DNA of 64,000 nt, from assembly GCA_951406725.2 (NCBI GenBank), contig OX597821.1, positions 110,856,001 through 110,920,000 of the forward strand, written 5' to 3'. Under the pieces are notes generated by a model that worked only from the letters and a program-made list of their open reading frames with translations, did not search any database and was not told where the DNA came from. The position numbers and the translations under genes are program-made. Position 1 is the first letter of the stretch; each line of letters starts with the position of its first letter. Of the stretch, positions 12,721-50,789 are shown in pieces. The DNA comes from Octopus vulgaris. Taxonomy: Eukaryota.

Positions 12721-13739
12721 CTTCTTGTACCAATATCTACCAATGTCCAACTACTAGAGCCTTCCATTTATGCAGTTTGCCTACGTCTATAGTAAAAGAT
12801 TTCGGGTTAGTTGTGTTGTAAGTCTTACTGTTGCTGTTTGTACAGTATTCTCTCCTCACTGTGTTTAGTCACGAAGCACATTGTCCAACACTCTTACAAT
12901 AATAAAAGTGAAACAAAGGCAGTGTACTTCAACAGAAATACAGCAACAAAAGGGTTTAAAGAAACGCATAAAGAAAAGAAACTCAACGATTCTTTGCCAG
13001 TGCAACCCACCAATGGATTCTTCAGGCTCAACTGTTTCATCCATTTCTTTATTATTTAAATAAACCAGTGATCTTACTACAATGTCCATTAGATAATCCA
13101 AATTCTACGACAGTTTTATTTTAATCTAATTTCTTAATCCCAATTAAAACGGAGAATATCGAAGTTGATGTTCTCACGTAGCTGCCGCTGCCGACAATCA
13201 AACAAGCATAAGCGAAACGAGCAAATATATATTTACGAAGATGGACAAACATAATGGTGGATTTTATCTGACGTTTTAAATCGGAAAAGCCTGGAGTCTC
13301 TGATACAATTACCACAGAACAATTCATCATTGTATATCTTGCATGGCGACTACAAATTACGTGAGTTTTCCTTGTCGTACAGTTTATTCAAGCAGACTTT
13401 TCCGAGTGTTCCATGGACAATACTTTACTATCCAAAGACATTTATATCCAAACAATGACATCGACGTCCTACAGAGAAGGAAAATGGCTGCAGTATATTC
13501 TTACAGCGTATTTTCTCAAACAATTCGGCCTCTCCAGCAATCTTTATGGTATTTGTTCTGTTTCTCTTCACACGTCATTCTGACTCTCATTCGCGATACG
13601 TGCCTATGTGCATAAATAAATATATATATATATATATATATTGATAAAACGGTAAGATAACAAAAGAAAGAAAGAGACCTCAATATTATGTAAATAGAGG
13701 AAATTTATCTATACAATATGTTACATTACTCGGTAGTCA

Positions 13740-13802
13740 AGATAAAACTCTGAGTTTCAGATGCCGAAGTGGAAATCCACAACACCATCTCTTCGGTTAT
13801 CT
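13740..13802 (-). ncRNA. Hammerhead-like ribozyme in the 3' pLTR (C4 core variant)
   Basis: AGAUAA-CCGAAGA-GAUG[22 nt]CAUC-U-GAA-ACUC-A-GAGU-U-UUAUCU on the ORF-sense strand. Confidence 0.65.
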
Positions 13803-14010
13803 GGCTATTTGAAAACGTTATGAAAAAATACCGTTAAAAATGAAGGGAAATTTCTGTTATAACTCTGCTTTGCCTGCGTACTTATACATCGCTCGCATTT
13901 TTCGTCATAAAAATTATATAAAAATACATAAAAATATATATACATAAAAATATATAAAAATATATAAAAATATATAAATTCTTCTTGGGACATAACACAG
14001 AAAGCATGTT

Positions 14011-15849
14011 CTATCCGTTTTCTTTAGGGGACCAAAAACGTAACAGAAATTTAGTCACATGTGGGCATGATCCGAAAAGCTCTGTCCTTGTATTTAGACA
14101 TGTGGTAGGGTCTAAGCTGCTTTTCCAGATAAGCCATCTCTCCATGTCGCATAAACCGCACCTTCCGCTGCCGTTAGTATAGGGCTTACATCTGGCCAAA
14201 ATCTTCCATTGTATGTTATAATCGACACCTTTATCTCTTAAAGACCAAATATGATTGGATAATTGTGTCGCTTTTCTTTTGTTCCAGTGCCTAAAGCTCA
14301 AAGTGTGGTTATTGAACCTGGCCTTGAAATTACCCTCTGTAAGGCCCACGTATTTCTTCGTCGAAACGGTGTCTTTAGTGGTTATAGAGTTTACGGTAGC
14401 TTCATATATGATGGTCTTGGACATGCAAGCTCCATTTAGCGGGCACAGTTCTTTATTCCTGCATGAACAGCTGTTTTCTTCTTGTGTTTTTTGTATGTTA
14501 TGATTGATTATGTTTTTAAAATTGGTAGTTGAACTAAAACTAATTTTTAAATTGTGTCTATTGAAGAGTTTCCTATAAGCATGGTTAACTGGAAAATGTC
14601 TATCTATCAGTGCTAGGAAATATTTGCCTATATTGAAGGCCACCTCGGGTGAGTAAGAGGGCGTAAACCAGATGACCTTCCTATTTCTATTATTCCTTTT
14701 CCTTACTGTTGGGCTAGTGATAGGTGTATATTTTATTTTTTCGCTAAAACCACTATCTTTTAAAGCTTTATTATAAACTGGGGCAACGCTATTGAAGATG
14801 TCCTCATTAGATGAGAGGCTAGAAATCCTCTTACTAATATTTTTAACTAAATTTTTGAATACTATAGGGGGATGGCATGAACCTACATTAATATAACTTA
14901 GTCTATCATTGGGCTTCCTATAAGGCTTATAAATATTATTATTAAGATCTAAGGAAACGTCTAAGAAATTGACAACCGTCAGGTTAGTGTCTATAGTTAT
15001 ACTAAGTCCGAAGTGTTTCATTAACTGGATAATATCCTTCCTAAAACGATCTTGTGCTGGTCCATTTGTATTAGCTGTTAAGGCGAGGGCATCATCTTTG
15101 TAGATGGCGAAATGTACGTTAGGGAATGTCTTACCGAAGGTATCTAGGAGAAAGAGTCCAATTAGATCACAGATGCCTGCCCCATCATATGAACCCATGC
15201 TCACATCGAAAGCGCCCTCCGTGTCGGTGTTTTTTACCCACTTTGCATTCTCACTGAAAAGTAATGTCTTTCTAGCATGGAAGATTATATCCTTATCATT
15301 GGTACTAATTTCTATGATGTCACTAGCGAAGATTAGGGCTTTATCTAGCAGTTCTTTAGAGATAGAGGCATAAAAATCAACAATATCGAATTGTGTAAAC
15401 CTCGCTTTTTTCTTATTCTTAATAGCTTTAAACCAGTCTACGACTTCTATACTATTGGACCATTGCACTAGCCTAGTATCGGTCTTAATTTTCGTATTTA
15501 TTTTATCTAAAATTTCTTTACTAATAATCCCTAGTTCTGACTTGGCTGGGTTGATAAGCCTACATTTAGGGTTGGAAAGGAAGTTTTCTTTGTGATCTTT
15601 AATAGTAATAAAGGCCTCTTTTTGGGGGAGGGCTTCTATTTTTTTATCTAATTTAAGTTTAGCGGCGATGACGCTAGCTTCTTTATTAATTTCGTTATAT
15701 GTCTGTGCCCTAGCCTTAGTATAATTATTAATGATGCTGTTGTGTAAGAGTTGTGTGTATTTGCTGTTATCTACCAGGTATAAGTTCTTGGTTTTATCCG
15801 AAAAAAATGCTTTTTTCTTTGAGCTTTTTATATGATTAATATCTTTTTT
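14011..15849 (-). CDS. PLE reverse transcriptase + C-terminal GIY-YIG endonuclease (Naiad-like), N-terminus missing
   Basis: Frame read by hand is open from 15849: SDKTKNLY, KDHKENF..NPKCRLINPAKS, FDIVDFY, MGSYDGA, YKDD, CSCRNKELCPLNGAC, IIYEA...YVGLTEGNFKARFNNH, CGLC, SCPH. Confidence 0.93.
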   Translation of the reverse strand, partial: KKDINHIKSSKKKAFFSDKTKNLYLVDNSKYTQLLHNSIINNYTKARAQTYNEINKEASVIAAKLKLDKKIEALPQKEAFITIKDHKENFLSNPKCRLINPAKSELGIISKEILDKINTKIKTDTRLVQWSNSIEVVDWFKAIKNKKKARFTQFDIVDFYASISKELLDKALIFASDIIEISTNDKDIIFHARKTLLFSENAKWVKNTDTEGAFDVSMGSYDGAGICDLIGLFLLDTFGKTFPNVHFAIYKDDALALTANTNGPAQDRFRKDIIQLMKHFGLSITIDTNLTVVNFLDVSLDLNNNIYKPYRKPNDRLSYINVGSCHPPIVFKNLVKNISKRISSLSSNEDIFNSVAPVYNKALKDSGFSEKIKYTPITSPTVRKRNNRNRKVIWFTPSYSPEVAFNIGKYFLALIDRHFPVNHAYRKLFNRHNLKISFSSTTNFKNIINHNIQKTQEENSCSCRNKELCPLNGACMSKTIIYEATVNSITTKDTVSTKKYVGLTEGNFKARFNNHTLSFRHWNKRKATQLSNHIWSLRDKGVDYNIQWKILARCKPYTNGSGRCGLCDMERWLIWKSSLDPTTCLNTRTELFGSCPHVTKFLLRFWSPKENG

Positions 15850-16103
15850 TCAATTTATGTTGGAAATCGTTAAAAGACTTACGAAATTTTATTTTGCTCA
15901 TGATTTTCAGCATGATTTTCTGTGTTATGTCCCAAGAAGAATTTATATATTTTTATATATTTTTATATATTTTTATGTATTTTTATATAATTTTTATGAC
16001 GAAAAATGCGAGCGATGTATGAGTACGCAGGCAAAGCAGAGTTATAACAGAGTAATTTCCCTTCATTTTTAACGGTATTTTTTCATAACGTTTTCAAATA
16101 GCC

Positions 16104-16166
16104 AGATAACCGAAGAGATGGTGTTGTGGATTTCCACTTCGGCATCTGAAACTCAGAGTTTTATCT
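16104..16166 (+). ncRNA. Hammerhead-like ribozyme in the inverted pLTR copy
   Basis: Same sequence as 13740-13802 in the opposite orientation. Confidence 0.65.
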
Positions 16167-16188
16167 TGACTACCGAGTAATGTAAAAT

Positions 16189-16240
<52 letters not shown>

Positions 16241-28930: not shown

Positions 28931-29299
28931 TAACGCGCTCATCAGAGAACAGTGCTGTAAGCTAATATCCGGTGCGAATACCTAGTGTGAAACCCATTGG
29001 TAATAATGCTTGTAATGTTTCTATGATTTTATACAGAATCATAGAAACCTTTAGTAAGACTGGTTGTAATGGATACTACATGCCATTTCCAGCGTATAAA
29101 TTTCTCTCTCACACCTGCTTAACATGCTATTTCTAACATATTGAACAGGTGTGAGAGGGAACCCCTTCGAGCGCACCGTTGCTGAGCTCGTTTTTTGCCT
29201 GAGCATCGGCAGCATAGTTATGAGCAAACTTCTTGGAAGACTTGGGACTTAAGGCTTTGTTGCGGATGAAGAAGGTCATACCTAAAATGAGGATTTCAG

Positions 29300-30245
29300 T
29301 CATTCGCCGTGCTGTTTCTAATTGGTTAGGATTGAATTAGGTGGGCTTCTATAGATAATTGGCATAAAACGGATGACAGTCCGCACCGATGGCTGACATT
29401 AAGTTCCACAGGACCCAAAAGCAATGTGGGATTTGTGTTGGGTAGTTGCGATAAGGAAGTGATAAGGTGACCCAATATATACAGAGACAGTTGCAATTTG
29501 GTAGAGTTCAGGTTTTGAGGCACGAAAGAGAGCAACAGTCTTCGAGCTGAATGTGTGAAATACGAAAAGGGGGTTATGAAACAAACATGGAGTAAAATGT
29601 CGAGACTAGCAACGTATTCGGTTTCTACACCGGCAGCATCGGTGTGGGATGAGTATGCAGGCCTTGAGGAATTATAAGTGTGTCGAAGACGCCGAGGATA
29701 ATGATTTCTGATGGGGACGAGAGATGAGATGGATGTTCTCGATGCGGGAGGAGAATTACTGGTGATACGGAGAGCGATAAAGAGAGTAAGAGTATTCGTG
29801 AAGGAATGAAACGGAGAGACTTTGAGCTCGAGTAAGTGGATGTCATTATTGCAAAGATCCAAATGATGGGGTGACTGGAGTCTACCTATGTTGTAGACAC
29901 CACTTTTTGTAGTAAAGTTCAAGTAGGGAGTGTGTCTTGGACAGTCGAGGTGGATTTTTGGTAGGAGTCTTAGAACGGAGGAGAGTGCATGATTTGTGGT
30001 GGGTGTGATCTAGATTGGAAAGAAATCCTCCAATGTTTGAGAAGAGGCAGAAGAATTGGCCAACATGCTCGGATTTTCTTTAGCGGTGCAGGTGGGTAGG
30101 GATCATCGGAATGTACAGACAGTACTGGTGCGAGGGAACCCCAGGCAAGAAATATGGTCCAAATGTTTGCGACAAGATGAAATCATGCAGTTCTATGTTT
30201 GAGAGATGAGGAATTATGTGTATTATTTACATCTGACGGATATTT
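29300..30245 (-). pseudogene. Decayed PLE 5' region (pLTR end followed by ORF N-terminus)
   Basis: pLTR-like tail 30186-30245 runs into MISSCRKHLDHISCL...; peptide HHLDLCNNDIHLLELK resembles the PLE N-terminal H-xx-FL-xx-C motif; 30080-30145 is duplicated at 30245-30308. Confidence 0.5.
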
Positions 30246-30310
30246 AGCGGTGCAGGTAGGGAGGGATCATCGGAGTATGCAGACAGTGCTGGTGCGAGGG
30301 ACCCACAGGT

Positions 30311-30373
30311 ATATGGTGTAGAGCGCGGGCTACTAACCCCAAGATTCCGAGTTCGATTCCAGGCAATGACCTG
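30311..30373 (+). ncRNA. tRNA-like head (pseudo-tRNA, ACT anticodon loop)
   Basis: tggtgtagagcg, ggg-ctactaa-ccc arm, ccgag-ttcgatt-ccagg with B box GTTCGATTCC; acceptor stem not intact. Confidence 0.6.
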
Positions 30374-30385
30374 AATAATAATAAC

Positions 30386-30459
<74 letters not shown>

Positions 30460-30485
30460 TGATGATGATGATGATGATGATAATC

Positions 30486-30537
<52 letters not shown>

Positions 30538-30539
<2 letters not shown>

Positions 30540-31078
30540 GCCCTGATGCAGTACCAGACAGTGGGTCTCATGGCTTCTGATCTTAACTGATTGGAAGTGT
30601 TATCATGTATATTGTTTTGTCTTGGTTTAAAAGAAGGGCTACAGCAAATATGCTGCTCAATACCACAGAATTGCTTCTCAGTTCTTTGACTTCAACCTGT
30701 TGACCATGTCTCTTAGTGGCTGACGATATGAGCAGAAGTAGTGGGGGAGCATCATAGCTGTGTATTGAAAGGAATTCTTGGAGGTTTGGATAATTCACCT
30801 TTGAAAACATGGGTGGTTCGTTCAACTTCCTTAAACAATCCTTATTCAGGGACCTTTTGAGGGGATGGGCTACTCGACCCTAAGAAAATTCTAACTGGGC
30901 CCCACCTGCAAGGTCATGCGCTGTTTATCTTGATATGAGATCACCATGTCGCGCACATATGGTTGTGATGCATGAGCCTGGTGTACCCTTATCAGACGGG
31001 TAGTCATGATGGGTATACTGGGCTTCGTATATTTGTTTCCCAGTGTCACTTTGATGGCAGGAACTGCTCTCTCACTCA
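30538..31078 (+). mobile_element. ~540-bp non-coding element inserted in (AAT)n
   Basis: End-to-end homologue in reverse orientation at 47996-48553; both flanked by (AAT)n. Confidence 0.85.
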
Positions 31079-31196
31079 ATAATGATAATAATAATGATGA
31101 TAATAATAATAATAATATTAATAATAATAATAATAATTATAATAATAATTATAATAATACCATCGGAATGAGAACCTAGGTTCAAAATTCCCTCAG

Positions 31197-31242
31197 GACA
31201 CTTGATGAAGGCTGGAGAATACATCAGCCGAAAAGTTGTGTT
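31197..31242 (+). ncRNA. Hammerhead-like ribozyme (decayed; U3 core)
   Basis: GACAC-UUGAUGA-A-GGCUG[gagaauacau]CAGCC-GAA-AAGU-U-GUGUU; stem III mismatch. Confidence 0.65.
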
Positions 31243-31474
31243 AACAACAAATGAGATGAGGACAAACATTCGTCAAATGTAAATAATGTAAAAAAAAAGT
31301 GCAATCAGTTAAAGACACCTCAGGACCAGATGCTAGTATTAAAGTGCGTCATGTGAGGAGGGGGGATTACCACCAGAGGTGGGGAGAGCCTTCTACGGCA
31401 TATAAAAGATGGCGACCAGAGAACAAGATCAAGAATAAACGAAAAAAATTGGAAAAGCAAAAGGAAAAACAGCC

Positions 31475-40224: not shown

Positions 40225-40289
40225 ATGATGGTGATGGTGGTGGTGGTGGTGGTCGTCGTCGTCGCAGTTGCAGCAGTAAGAGTAGTAGT

Positions 40290-40326
<37 letters not shown>

Positions 40327-40345
40327 TGCTGCTGCTGCTGCTGCT

Positions 40346-40392
<47 letters not shown>

Positions 40393-40408
40393 TGCAGCAG
40401 CAGCAGCT

Positions 40409-40447
<39 letters not shown>

Positions 40448-40465
40448 CTGCTGCTGCTGCTGCTG

Positions 40466-40514
<49 letters not shown>

Positions 40515-40526
40515 CTGCTGCTGCTG

Positions 40527-40575
<49 letters not shown>

Positions 40576-47995: not shown

Positions 47996-48550
47996 TGAGT
48001 GAGAGAGCAGTGCATGCCATCAAAGTGACACTGGGGTAAAATATACGAAGCTCAATATACTCATCATGACTACTCGTCTGATAAAGGTACACCAGGTTCA
48101 TGCATCACAACCATATGTGCGCGACATGGTGATCTCATATCAAGATAAATAACGCAAGACCTTGCAGGTGGGGCCCAGTTACAATTTTCTTCTGGTCGAT
48201 TAGCCCATCCCGCTCAATAGGTCCCTGAATAAGGATTGTTTAAGGTTGTTGAACGAGCAACCCATGTTTCCAAAGGTGAATTATCCAAACCTCCAAGAAT
48301 TCCTTTCAATACACAGCTATGATGCTCCCCCACTACTTCTGCACGTGATCATAGATGCCCATATCGTCAACCACTAAGGGCCATGGTCAACTGGTTAAGG
48401 TCAAACAACTGACAAGCAAATCTGTGGTATTGAGCAGAATATTTGCTGTAGCCCATCTTTTATACCAAGACAAAACAATGTACATGATAACACTTCTAAT
48501 CAGTTAAGATCAGAAGGCACGAGAGCCACTGTCTGGTACTGCATCAGGGC

Positions 48551-48553
<3 letters not shown>
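47996..48553 (-). mobile_element. ~555-bp non-coding (AAT)n-inserted element
   Basis: Reverse-complement homologue of 30538-31078 with the same termini. Confidence 0.85.
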
Positions 48554-49046: not shown

Positions 49047-49475
49047 TAGTTTTATTTTTATAGCGTGCTTTCACTTCACTACCGAGCACAGCTCTGTGTG
49101 CCTTGGGTATGTGCTGTGATTTGTTGTGATGCTCTGATGGTTATTGTATGGAAAGTGTTCTGCATAGGATGTGTGCAGTGCCTAGTAGTGCAATTTTCTG
49201 TATGTTATATGTGTTTGTAAGTCCTGGTGTTTTTGTTATGTATTTGTCTGAATATTTTTTTATCATGCCTAATGCACCTACTATGATAGGAATTGTTTCT
49301 GTTTTCAGATTCCACATTCTAGTTACCTCTATTTCCAGGTCTTTGTATTTTGAGAGTTTCTCCATTTCTTTTAGAGACACGTTGTCATCTGCCGGTATTG
49401 ATACATCAATTAGAAAGCATTTTTTTCCTTCATGATCTCTGACAACTATATCTGGTCTGTTGGCCTTAATTTCTC
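48755..49475 (-). mobile_element. R4/Dong-type element 3' end (49043-49475) plus partial duplicate (48755-48963)
   Basis: RLE domain NRPDIVV...IDVSIP...EKLSKYKDL...PIIVGALG; (AAT)n flanks. Confidence 0.9.
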
Positions 49476-49542
<67 letters not shown>

Positions 49543-49557
49543 TGTCATTATTATTAC

Positions 49558-49608
<51 letters not shown>

Positions 49609-49610
<2 letters not shown>

Positions 49611-50450
49611 TATGTTTGACTTTTGCTTTATATTTGTACAAGTTGGCTCCAAGTCTCACCCAGAGACCTCAAGAGACAACAGGGTTGGAAGTTCATGTTG
49701 TTGTTATGCCTAGTGTGCCATATATTTGGGGGGTGGGGATGTTGTACTAATGAATGTCTAAAAAGAAAAAAAAAAAAAAAAGTAATTTTTTTTTTTTTTT
49801 TTTTTTTTTAAACCGAAAATTATGTTTGTTTTAAACCTTGAGATTACATAGAGAGTATTTTGCGTAGGATATGAGCAGTTCCCATGAGCACTATCTTTTG
49901 AACTTCTGCCATTTTTGGGTTTCCTGGTATCTGAGTTAGGTAGCTATCAGCCCCTTTTGCTATCATTCCCAGGGCACCTATGACAACAGGTATTGTTTTA
50001 GTCTTCAGCTTCCACATTTTGCTGATTTCTATTTCAAGATCTTTATATTTGCTCAGTTTTTGGTAGGTCTTGACAGATACGTTTATATCGATTGGGACAG
50101 TCATATCAATGAGGAGGCATGTTCTTTGTTTGAAGTTTTTCAATATGATGTCTGGCCTATTTGCATCTATCTTCCTGTCAGTTTGAATGGTGAAGTTCCA
50201 GAGGAGTGAGATGTGGTCATTTTCAAGCACTGGGGGTGGTTTGTGTTCCCACCAGTTTTTTTCATGGGGCAAATCCAGGTTTTTACAGATTACCCAGTGA
50301 ATATATTGTGCAGCTCTATCGTGCCTGTTGAGATACTCTGTAGGCGCTAGAAGACTGCACTTGGAGACCACATGGTCAATGGTTTCATTTTGTTGCTTGC
50401 ATACACGACACGTTGGACTGCTTCTGATCTTTAATATGTTGGCCTGGTAT
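49609..50450 (-). mobile_element. Second R4/Dong-type element 3' end (CCHC + RLE + 3'UTR)
   Basis: CRVCKQQNETIDHVVSKC, YLNRHD, NRPDIIL, KLSKYKDL; stop at 49844; (AAT)n flanks. Confidence 0.92.
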
Positions 50451-50454
50451 ATTA

Positions 50455-50560
<106 letters not shown>

Positions 50561-50789
50561 CATCATTATTATTATTATTATTCACTACGGAACACATAAG
50601 ACGTGTTTTCAAACGCTTCGGATTGATGCAGCTTAAAACATTTATTTACACCGGTTTCGTGGTTTTTTGCAGTATTTATTTTATTCCAAGTTGTCAATAG
50701 AAACATCAGGAACCTGTTACTGGTTTTCTATGGTTGTTTAGCCTCTCTAGGGGCTATATTCAGCCCATCAAATAAGTTCGGTGGGCGTT

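Follow-up and report, generated by a model that had tools for sequence, protein, structure and literature searches.

The window, a stretch of 64,000 nucleotides from Octopus vulgaris (contig OX597821.1, positions 110,856,001 to 110,920,000), has, between positions 30311 and 31290 of its plus strand, a tRNA-like head followed by an (AAT)n tract, which a 541-bp insert divides in two, and then by a hammerhead motif and a short tail. An inverted piece, a short duplicate of neighboring DNA and a decayed minus-strand reading frame lie to the left of them (Table 1).

Table 1. Features of the window copy and of the DNA around it (positions in the window)
Feature	Positions	Strand	Remarks
Decayed remnant of an APE-RT LINE, APE endonuclease region	29250..30185	-	Insertion target, outside the element
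5' inverted piece: tail plus 35-40 bp extension (start of ORF body)	30186..30245	-	
67-bp duplicate of target DNA 30079-30145, 88% identical	30243..30309	+	Between inverted piece and head
tRNA-Arg(ACG)-derived head	30311..30375	+	B box 30349-30360 intact; A box with 8-bp deletion
(AAT)n tract, left part, expanded	30374..30537	+	Other copies commonly with gaps of ~20-50 nt
Separate ~550-bp repeat	30538..31078	+	Later insertion into the AAT tract
(AAT)n tract, right part	31078..31159	+	
ATG 5' of the hammerhead	31168..31170	+	In frame with the RT-EN ORF in full-length copies
Minimal type I hammerhead	31197..31242	+	Window copy: C3 of the core replaced by T, and the palindromic CG 3' of GAAA by AG
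Tail	31243..31290	+	Stops at the main 3' end of the family

Parts of this layout had been proposed in an earlier note on the same DNA. The tRNA-like head, placed there at 30311-30373, was borne out by alignment to the tRNAs of the genome and runs to 30375, and the hammerhead at 31197-31242 qualifies as a minimal type I ribozyme by the published features of minimal hammerheads. The window head matches the majority sequence of its family at 59 of 62 positions, and its A box is 8 bp short relative to that majority. Because of the changes at the core and palindromic positions listed in Table 1, the window hammerhead is probably inactive; with two ribozyme positions lost and the A box shortened, the copy as a whole is probably dead.

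The segment that splits the AAT tract, treated in the earlier note as a removable insert, is indeed a separate repeat, with an 89% identical copy at 47996-48552; the fetched loci contain additional copies, almost always flanked by AAT tracts. This ~550-bp repeat has fixed ends, lies within (AAT)n tracts, often inside the tract of the family described here, and is possibly a non-autonomous partner of AAT-targeting LINEs. The 3' ends of two LINE-like ORFs, which we take to be of the R4/Dong type, also lie within AAT tracts of the window (49141-49668 and 49844-50581, minus strand; zf-RVT in the second), and similar pieces break the AAT tract of other copies (L022 and L088).

The minus-strand frame left of position 30186, in which the start of a PLE-like ORF had been seen, is actually a decayed APE endonuclease of a LINE. 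Over 29250-30185, this frame has zero DNA similarity to the family and no match in a PLE profile search. Its sole genomic relative, 73% identical, is itself related to APE and APE-RT LINE proteins, and 6 of 109 such proteins match the window stretch directly (best E value, 5e-5). The failed profile match and the APE LINE relatives together rule out an old PLE fragment at this position; the LINE remnant is the DNA into which the window copy inserted. The local argument of the earlier note is wrong: the tail does recur in inverted orientation, over 30186-30245 rather than 30221-30245, but this recurrence is the copy's own 5' inverted piece, and the adjoining ORF belongs to an unrelated LINE. A template jump during insertion likely produced the 67-bp duplicate that separates the inverted piece from the head, and the best local match to a target duplication at this copy is 7 of 8 positions.

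The genome searched comprises 2.8 Gb in 227 contigs. In a position-ordered sample, made up of the 30 loci that come first on contig 1 with an exact match to the head and chosen by position only, head, (AAT)n, hammerhead and tail occur together in 24 copies, and the 5' inverted piece is present in 19. Of 29 loci seeded with the head, 27 have the tail 3' of it, and of 28 seeded with the tail, 23 have the head 5' of it; the head and the hammerhead-bearing tail, whose genome-wide co-occurrence the earlier note had put forward as a check, are thus linked. Target duplications of 11-13 bp flank many copies. Among 30 hand-picked copies with such a duplication, a 35-40 bp extension was found at the inverted end in 13, at the forward end in 17 and at both ends in none. 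A 5' inversion and an optional 30-40 bp extension at one end are given as the insertion footprint of Penelope in the available text of a previous study (PMC8557442), and the inverted piece, short target duplication and one-end extension of the octopus copies are this footprint.

The same block is attached to a coding element. The 3' end of a GIY-YIG reading frame was found 5' of some heads, with the head ~35 bp past the stop codon, and among 30 loci retrieved by searching with this frame end, the head is at most 90 bp from the end of the endonuclease in 25, which establishes the linkage to RT/GIY-YIG ORFs that the earlier note had suggested looking for. The RT and the N terminus of the ORF were reached by walking upstream from the GIY-YIG end. 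In four loci (L145, L150, L152 and L157), head, AAT tract, hammerhead and tail stand immediately 5' of the ORF start, and the block occurs on both sides of the ORF, as a partial tandem, in L138, L145, L150/L330, L152 and L157; L330 (G000:C6) holds a whole copy of 2.8 kb, and another copy (L328) begins at tRNA position +1 and extends 370 nt into the ORF body. The order of the element is therefore RT, GIY-YIG and stop codon, then after ~35 bp the head, (AAT)n, hammerhead and tail, with the same block before the ORF; an abundant element of the Penelope/Poseidon type thus has the head-AAT-hammerhead-tail block as its terminal repeat (pLTR). These other genome copies support the proposal of the earlier note that the pLTR includes a tRNA-derived promoter upstream of the ribozyme.

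The majority sequence of the family has 793 open codons, and copies are 92.6% identical to it (~7% diverged). The majority ORF matches RVT_1 (E value, 3e-10) and has no match to Pfam GIY-YIG; the GIY-YIG part was identified by motifs and by full-length alignment to homologs. The ORF is 37-42% identical, over 600-750 amino acids, to four distant PLE-type homologs and to one named from Anolis. A set of proteins (P0001-P0029) is 57-75% identical to the family ORF, much closer than any named match (~40%). The reading frame runs back through the tail and the hammerhead to the ATG 5' of the hammerhead; of 13 copies examined, 10 retain this ATG, and in 7 of these it shares the frame of the RT-EN ORF. 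No extra Zn-finger linker was seen by eye on the translation of the RT-EN, which sets the family apart from Neptune/Nematis; such a linker between RT and EN separates these from Penelope/Poseidon, according to the available text of PMC8557442. The family may be extinct, because its copies are ~7% diverged and no intact ORF was found among them. The best full-length copy has an upstream head without its 5' half and two runs of four T (T4).

No relative of the family was found in viral contigs, and the protein search of the genome gave this family alone among the matches listed, with no second Poseidon family to serve as an in-genome control. The window does hold a different, very young PLE family at 14011-15849 on the minus strand (with flanks, 13700-16200), with 612 open codons encoding RT and GIY-YIG and a pLTR of ~285 bp. 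At least 40 genome copies of this family are 100% identical over 401 bp and ~98% identical over 2.2 kb; it has no canonical hammerhead core in the 400 bp tested and is probably still active. Furthermore, 46 loci in prokaryote records (L186-L231) encode relatives of animal PLE ORFs, many with hammerheads, and are likely host DNA binned into metagenome assemblies.

The identity of the head and of the hammerhead rests on alignment to the genome's tRNAs and on published features of minimal hammerheads, because standard searches are silent: Rfam yields no tRNA or hammerhead family in the window or in good copies, and ARAGORN leaves the head uncalled at the default and 85% thresholds and gives only noise at 70%. 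The one gathering-level Rfam match in the window, isrG at 40262-40532, is spurious and stems from a (CAG)n repeat. The majority head is identical to the genome's own tRNA-Arg(ACG) at 50 of 73 positions (z, 8.6), the best of 11 isotypes sampled. Both A and B boxes are kept, as scored by a pattern able to recognize the head of the family and 24 of 30 tRNA loci, and the cloverleaf is broken, with 5/7 pairs left in the acceptor stem, 3/5 in the T stem and 3/5 in the anticodon stem. A region with 23 exact tRNA-Arg motif matches within 20 kb (G000:C2:211887730-211907120) is a tandem tRNA gene array.

The majority hammerhead has a 5-bp stem I, a bulge between 9 and 10.1, a G10.1-C11.1 pair and a palindromic 15.2-16.2 (stem III). 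Of 145 copies that span it, 99 have an intact core, and in 51 both core and palindrome are intact. The minimal hammerhead of metazoan PLEs has the same features and is predicted to be active only as a dimer, as the available text of PMC4209133 describes. For the octopus ribozyme, too, cleavage is predicted solely in dimeric form or with the help of a protein. Copy ends fall well beyond the predicted cut, and the hammerhead would not define the ends of the element.

At the 5' side of the copies, 23 of the 30 position-ordered copies start within 7 nt of tRNA position +1 (-7 to +7), only one of the 30 reaches into the ORF, and 54 of 89 alignments in the seeded set begin between -10 and +9. Exact 18-mers from the head are 5.9-fold as numerous as those from ~50 nt upstream (6,004 versus 1,025). 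At the 3' side, the ends form two clusters, ~120-135 nt (70/108) and ~160-170 nt (17/108) past the ATG, part of the first cluster being an alignment break at a variable short repeat. In the anole Poseidon, reverse transcription begins at two internal positions near the beginning of the ORF, and the ORF itself starts inside the hammerhead; the template is required up to ORF position +172, past the starts at +111-118, the stretch between the two start sites is the "tail," and hammerhead cleavage is unnecessary (PMC11167929). By this analogy, the short SINE-like copies of the octopus family are likely products of internal reverse-transcription starts. Solo copies retain the promoter boxes, and short and ORF-linked copies fit a single majority sequence.

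The sense strand was further analyzed for runs of T. The family majority contains no run of four or more T in 2,490 nt, compared with 29 such runs of A, on a strand that is 37% A. Synonymous shuffling of the majority ORF gives a mean of 2.8 T runs (P = 0.036), and foreign PLE ORF stretches of at least 1.5 kb are T4-free in 1 of 21 cases. From eleven control PLEs matched for T content, 6.7 runs would be expected (Poisson P, about 0.001), the controls being phylogenetically non-independent single copies from unrelated hosts and the family figure being that of a majority sequence. These controls have 1.5 times as many T4 runs as base composition predicts. The density of T4 is 0.47 per kb in 21 long genomic copies, compared with 2.5 in the controls and 0.63 in a simulated decay of a T4-free master, and the second PLE family of the window has 12 runs of at least four T in 1,839 nt. 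Between ORF and hammerhead, none of the 11 control PLEs has an A plus B box and all 11 have T4. Behind the tRNA calls of the genome, T4 is the commonest first T run (14/46), and 7/46 calls have no T run at all. Runs of at least four G are also missing from the majority sequence (3.1 expected), and the controls are G4-poor too. T4 absence can arise by chance, because one headless control (L199) is T4-free over 2,008 nt and two others (L192 and L209) over ~1 kb. The sense strand is thus free of Pol III terminators of four or more T, with modest statistics and one T4-free control. The foreign set consisted of 46 PLE loci less 14 that were duplicates, short or weak matches (L197, L210-212, L216-219, L221, L224, L227, L228, L230 and L231), plus L171, one of three metagenome loci; window positions 49844-50450 (no T4 in 607 nt) were left out as a control for being out of frame.

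Taken together, the feature is best read, with a probability of roughly 0.6, as a decayed solo pLTR of a Penelope/Poseidon-type element whose coding RNA is likely made by Pol III from the tRNA-Arg-derived head. Pol III transcription is considered likely from sequence evidence, because the head is tRNA-derived, copies start at tRNA +1 and runs of four or more T are absent. Transcription by Pol III would begin at +1 of the upstream pLTR, proceed for 2.6 kb free of terminators through the ORF and the second pLTR, and stop at the first T run of the flank. The protein would begin at the ATG preceding the hammerhead, and reverse transcription would initiate within the RNA at the two sites marked by the 3'-end clusters, by analogy with the anole Poseidon. 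Initiation in the 5' pLTR would generate a product of ~250 nt that comprises tail, hammerhead, AAT and head and terminates at the first base of the RNA, which would yield the thousands of short SINE-like copies; initiation in the 3' pLTR would yield the ORF-bearing long copies. We consider the odds slightly in favor of the full scenario, in which an autonomous coding PLE exchanged its Pol II promoter for one of Pol III derived from a tRNA, eliminated T runs from its 2.4-kb ORF, is translated from an uncapped RNA downstream of an (AAT/AAC)n leader and yields SINE-like by-products through internal reverse-transcription starts. The need to translate an uncapped Pol III RNA counts against it.

Other explanations were weighed against the same evidence. 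That an unrelated tRNA-like repeat and an unrelated hammerhead repeat merely came to lie side by side within an AAT tract is next to inconceivable: such tracts do gather foreign inserts, the ~550-bp repeat of the window being an example, but order and junctions are constant across the position-ordered, head-seeded and tail-seeded loci, and the head keeps a constant place behind the endonuclease stop, so that chance adjacency is refuted. A true Penelope-dependent SINE, with solo pLTRs transcribed alone by Pol III and copied in trans by the PLE protein, whether or not Pol III also reads the ORF, is compatible with the reading preferred here and is rather unlikely as the explanation. The excess of head sequence over the sequence just upstream, the start of most copies at tRNA +1 with a single one reaching the ORF, and the promoter boxes kept in solo copies all fit such a SINE, and the unit has the 5' tRNA-derived head with A and B boxes that typifies SINE2. 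However, it is not a non-coding unit distinct from an autonomous partner: it is the pLTR of a coding element and holds an in-frame ATG, and short and ORF-linked copies, the window head included, share one majority sequence. Moreover, the short copies stop at the presumed reverse-transcription starts, whereas the anole Poseidon needs template beyond its own (PMC11167929), and T4 loss along the ORF would be left unaccounted for. Of the two options raised in the earlier note, a PLE that would be driven by Pol III accordingly fits better than a separate PLE-dependent SINE.

Conversely, the element could be a Penelope of the usual Pol II kind whose 3' UTR acquired a tRNA or SINE head, an RNase P cut or a stall of the RT producing the pile-up at +1 and A-rich codons producing the lack of T runs. 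This is a doubtful account, to which the A content of the sense strand, the equal absence of G4 runs and the headless, T4-free L199 lend some weight, as does Drosophila Penelope: the available text on the D. virilis element describes a LINE-like internal promoter and an intron, unlike the octopus family (PMC2377424). Yet both promoter boxes have been kept in a head with a broken cloverleaf that ARAGORN does not call at 85%, and controls of the same T content exceed, rather than fall below, the T4 number predicted from base composition.

The putatively Pol III-driven coding element shares features with known systems. Like Poseidon of Anolis carolinensis and Penelope of D. virilis, it has a single ORF with RT and C-terminal GIY-YIG and pLTRs arising from partial tandems, and a minimal hammerhead overlapping the ORF start, a 5' inverted piece and an optional 30-40 bp extension at one end are likewise found in Penelope/Poseidon PLEs, as far as the available texts describe them (PMC11167929, PMC8557442, PMC4209133). 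Unlike in the Anolis and D. virilis elements, the octopus pLTR opens with a tRNA-derived A/B-box head and (AAT)n, and the sense strand lacks T4. The union of a tRNA head and a hammerhead, of which the earlier note knew no example, has a precedent in the Sm-alpha and Sj-alpha SINE-like elements of schistosomes, in which, in the available text, a Pol III promoter is followed by a hammerhead (PMC6765202); a coding PLE driven by Pol III is undescribed in the literature searched. These schistosome elements are, by the same text, non-coding tandem repeats with canonical hammerheads, whereas the octopus block belongs, as terminal repeat, to a coding element, with copies that are single or inverted pairs instead of head-to-tail tandems released by the hammerhead. 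A Pol III promoter derived from a small RNA also lies in the terminal repeat of the TRIMp3 elements Cassandra, Helenus and Ajax, which the available text describes as non-autonomous LTR elements with PBS and PPT and with no ORF or hammerhead (PMC10886601).

Searches of the accessible papers returned no description of a tRNA-headed or Pol III PLE or of an octopus hammerhead element, and the available portion of the main text of a 2026 octopus repeat annotation mentions neither hammerhead nor ribozyme nor Pol III. Ohshima and Okada reportedly described the tRNA-derived octopus SINEs OK, OR1 and OR2 in 1994, some of which are said to derive from tRNA-Arg. These share with the family a tRNA-derived head in an octopus genome, and the short form may already be catalogued among OK, OR1 and OR2, or in Repbase, Dfam or SINEBase, as a SINE without a link to a PLE.

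Pol III is usually regarded as making short non-coding RNAs, and SINEs as borrowing the enzymes of LINEs. If the present reading is true, a kilobase-scale Pol III RNA would be translated well enough for its element to reach thousands of copies, which would offer a direct test of cap-independent translation, and a LINE-SINE pair would be combined in one transcript, providing a route to hammerhead SINEs such as Sm-alpha; the family suggests an origin for tRNA-plus-hammerhead repeats. Copy ends mapped in the genome allow the internal-initiation model, demonstrated in vitro with the anole Poseidon, to be checked. Finally, a very abundant "SINE" of the octopus genome would be explained as solo pLTRs, which bears on the annotation of its repeats.
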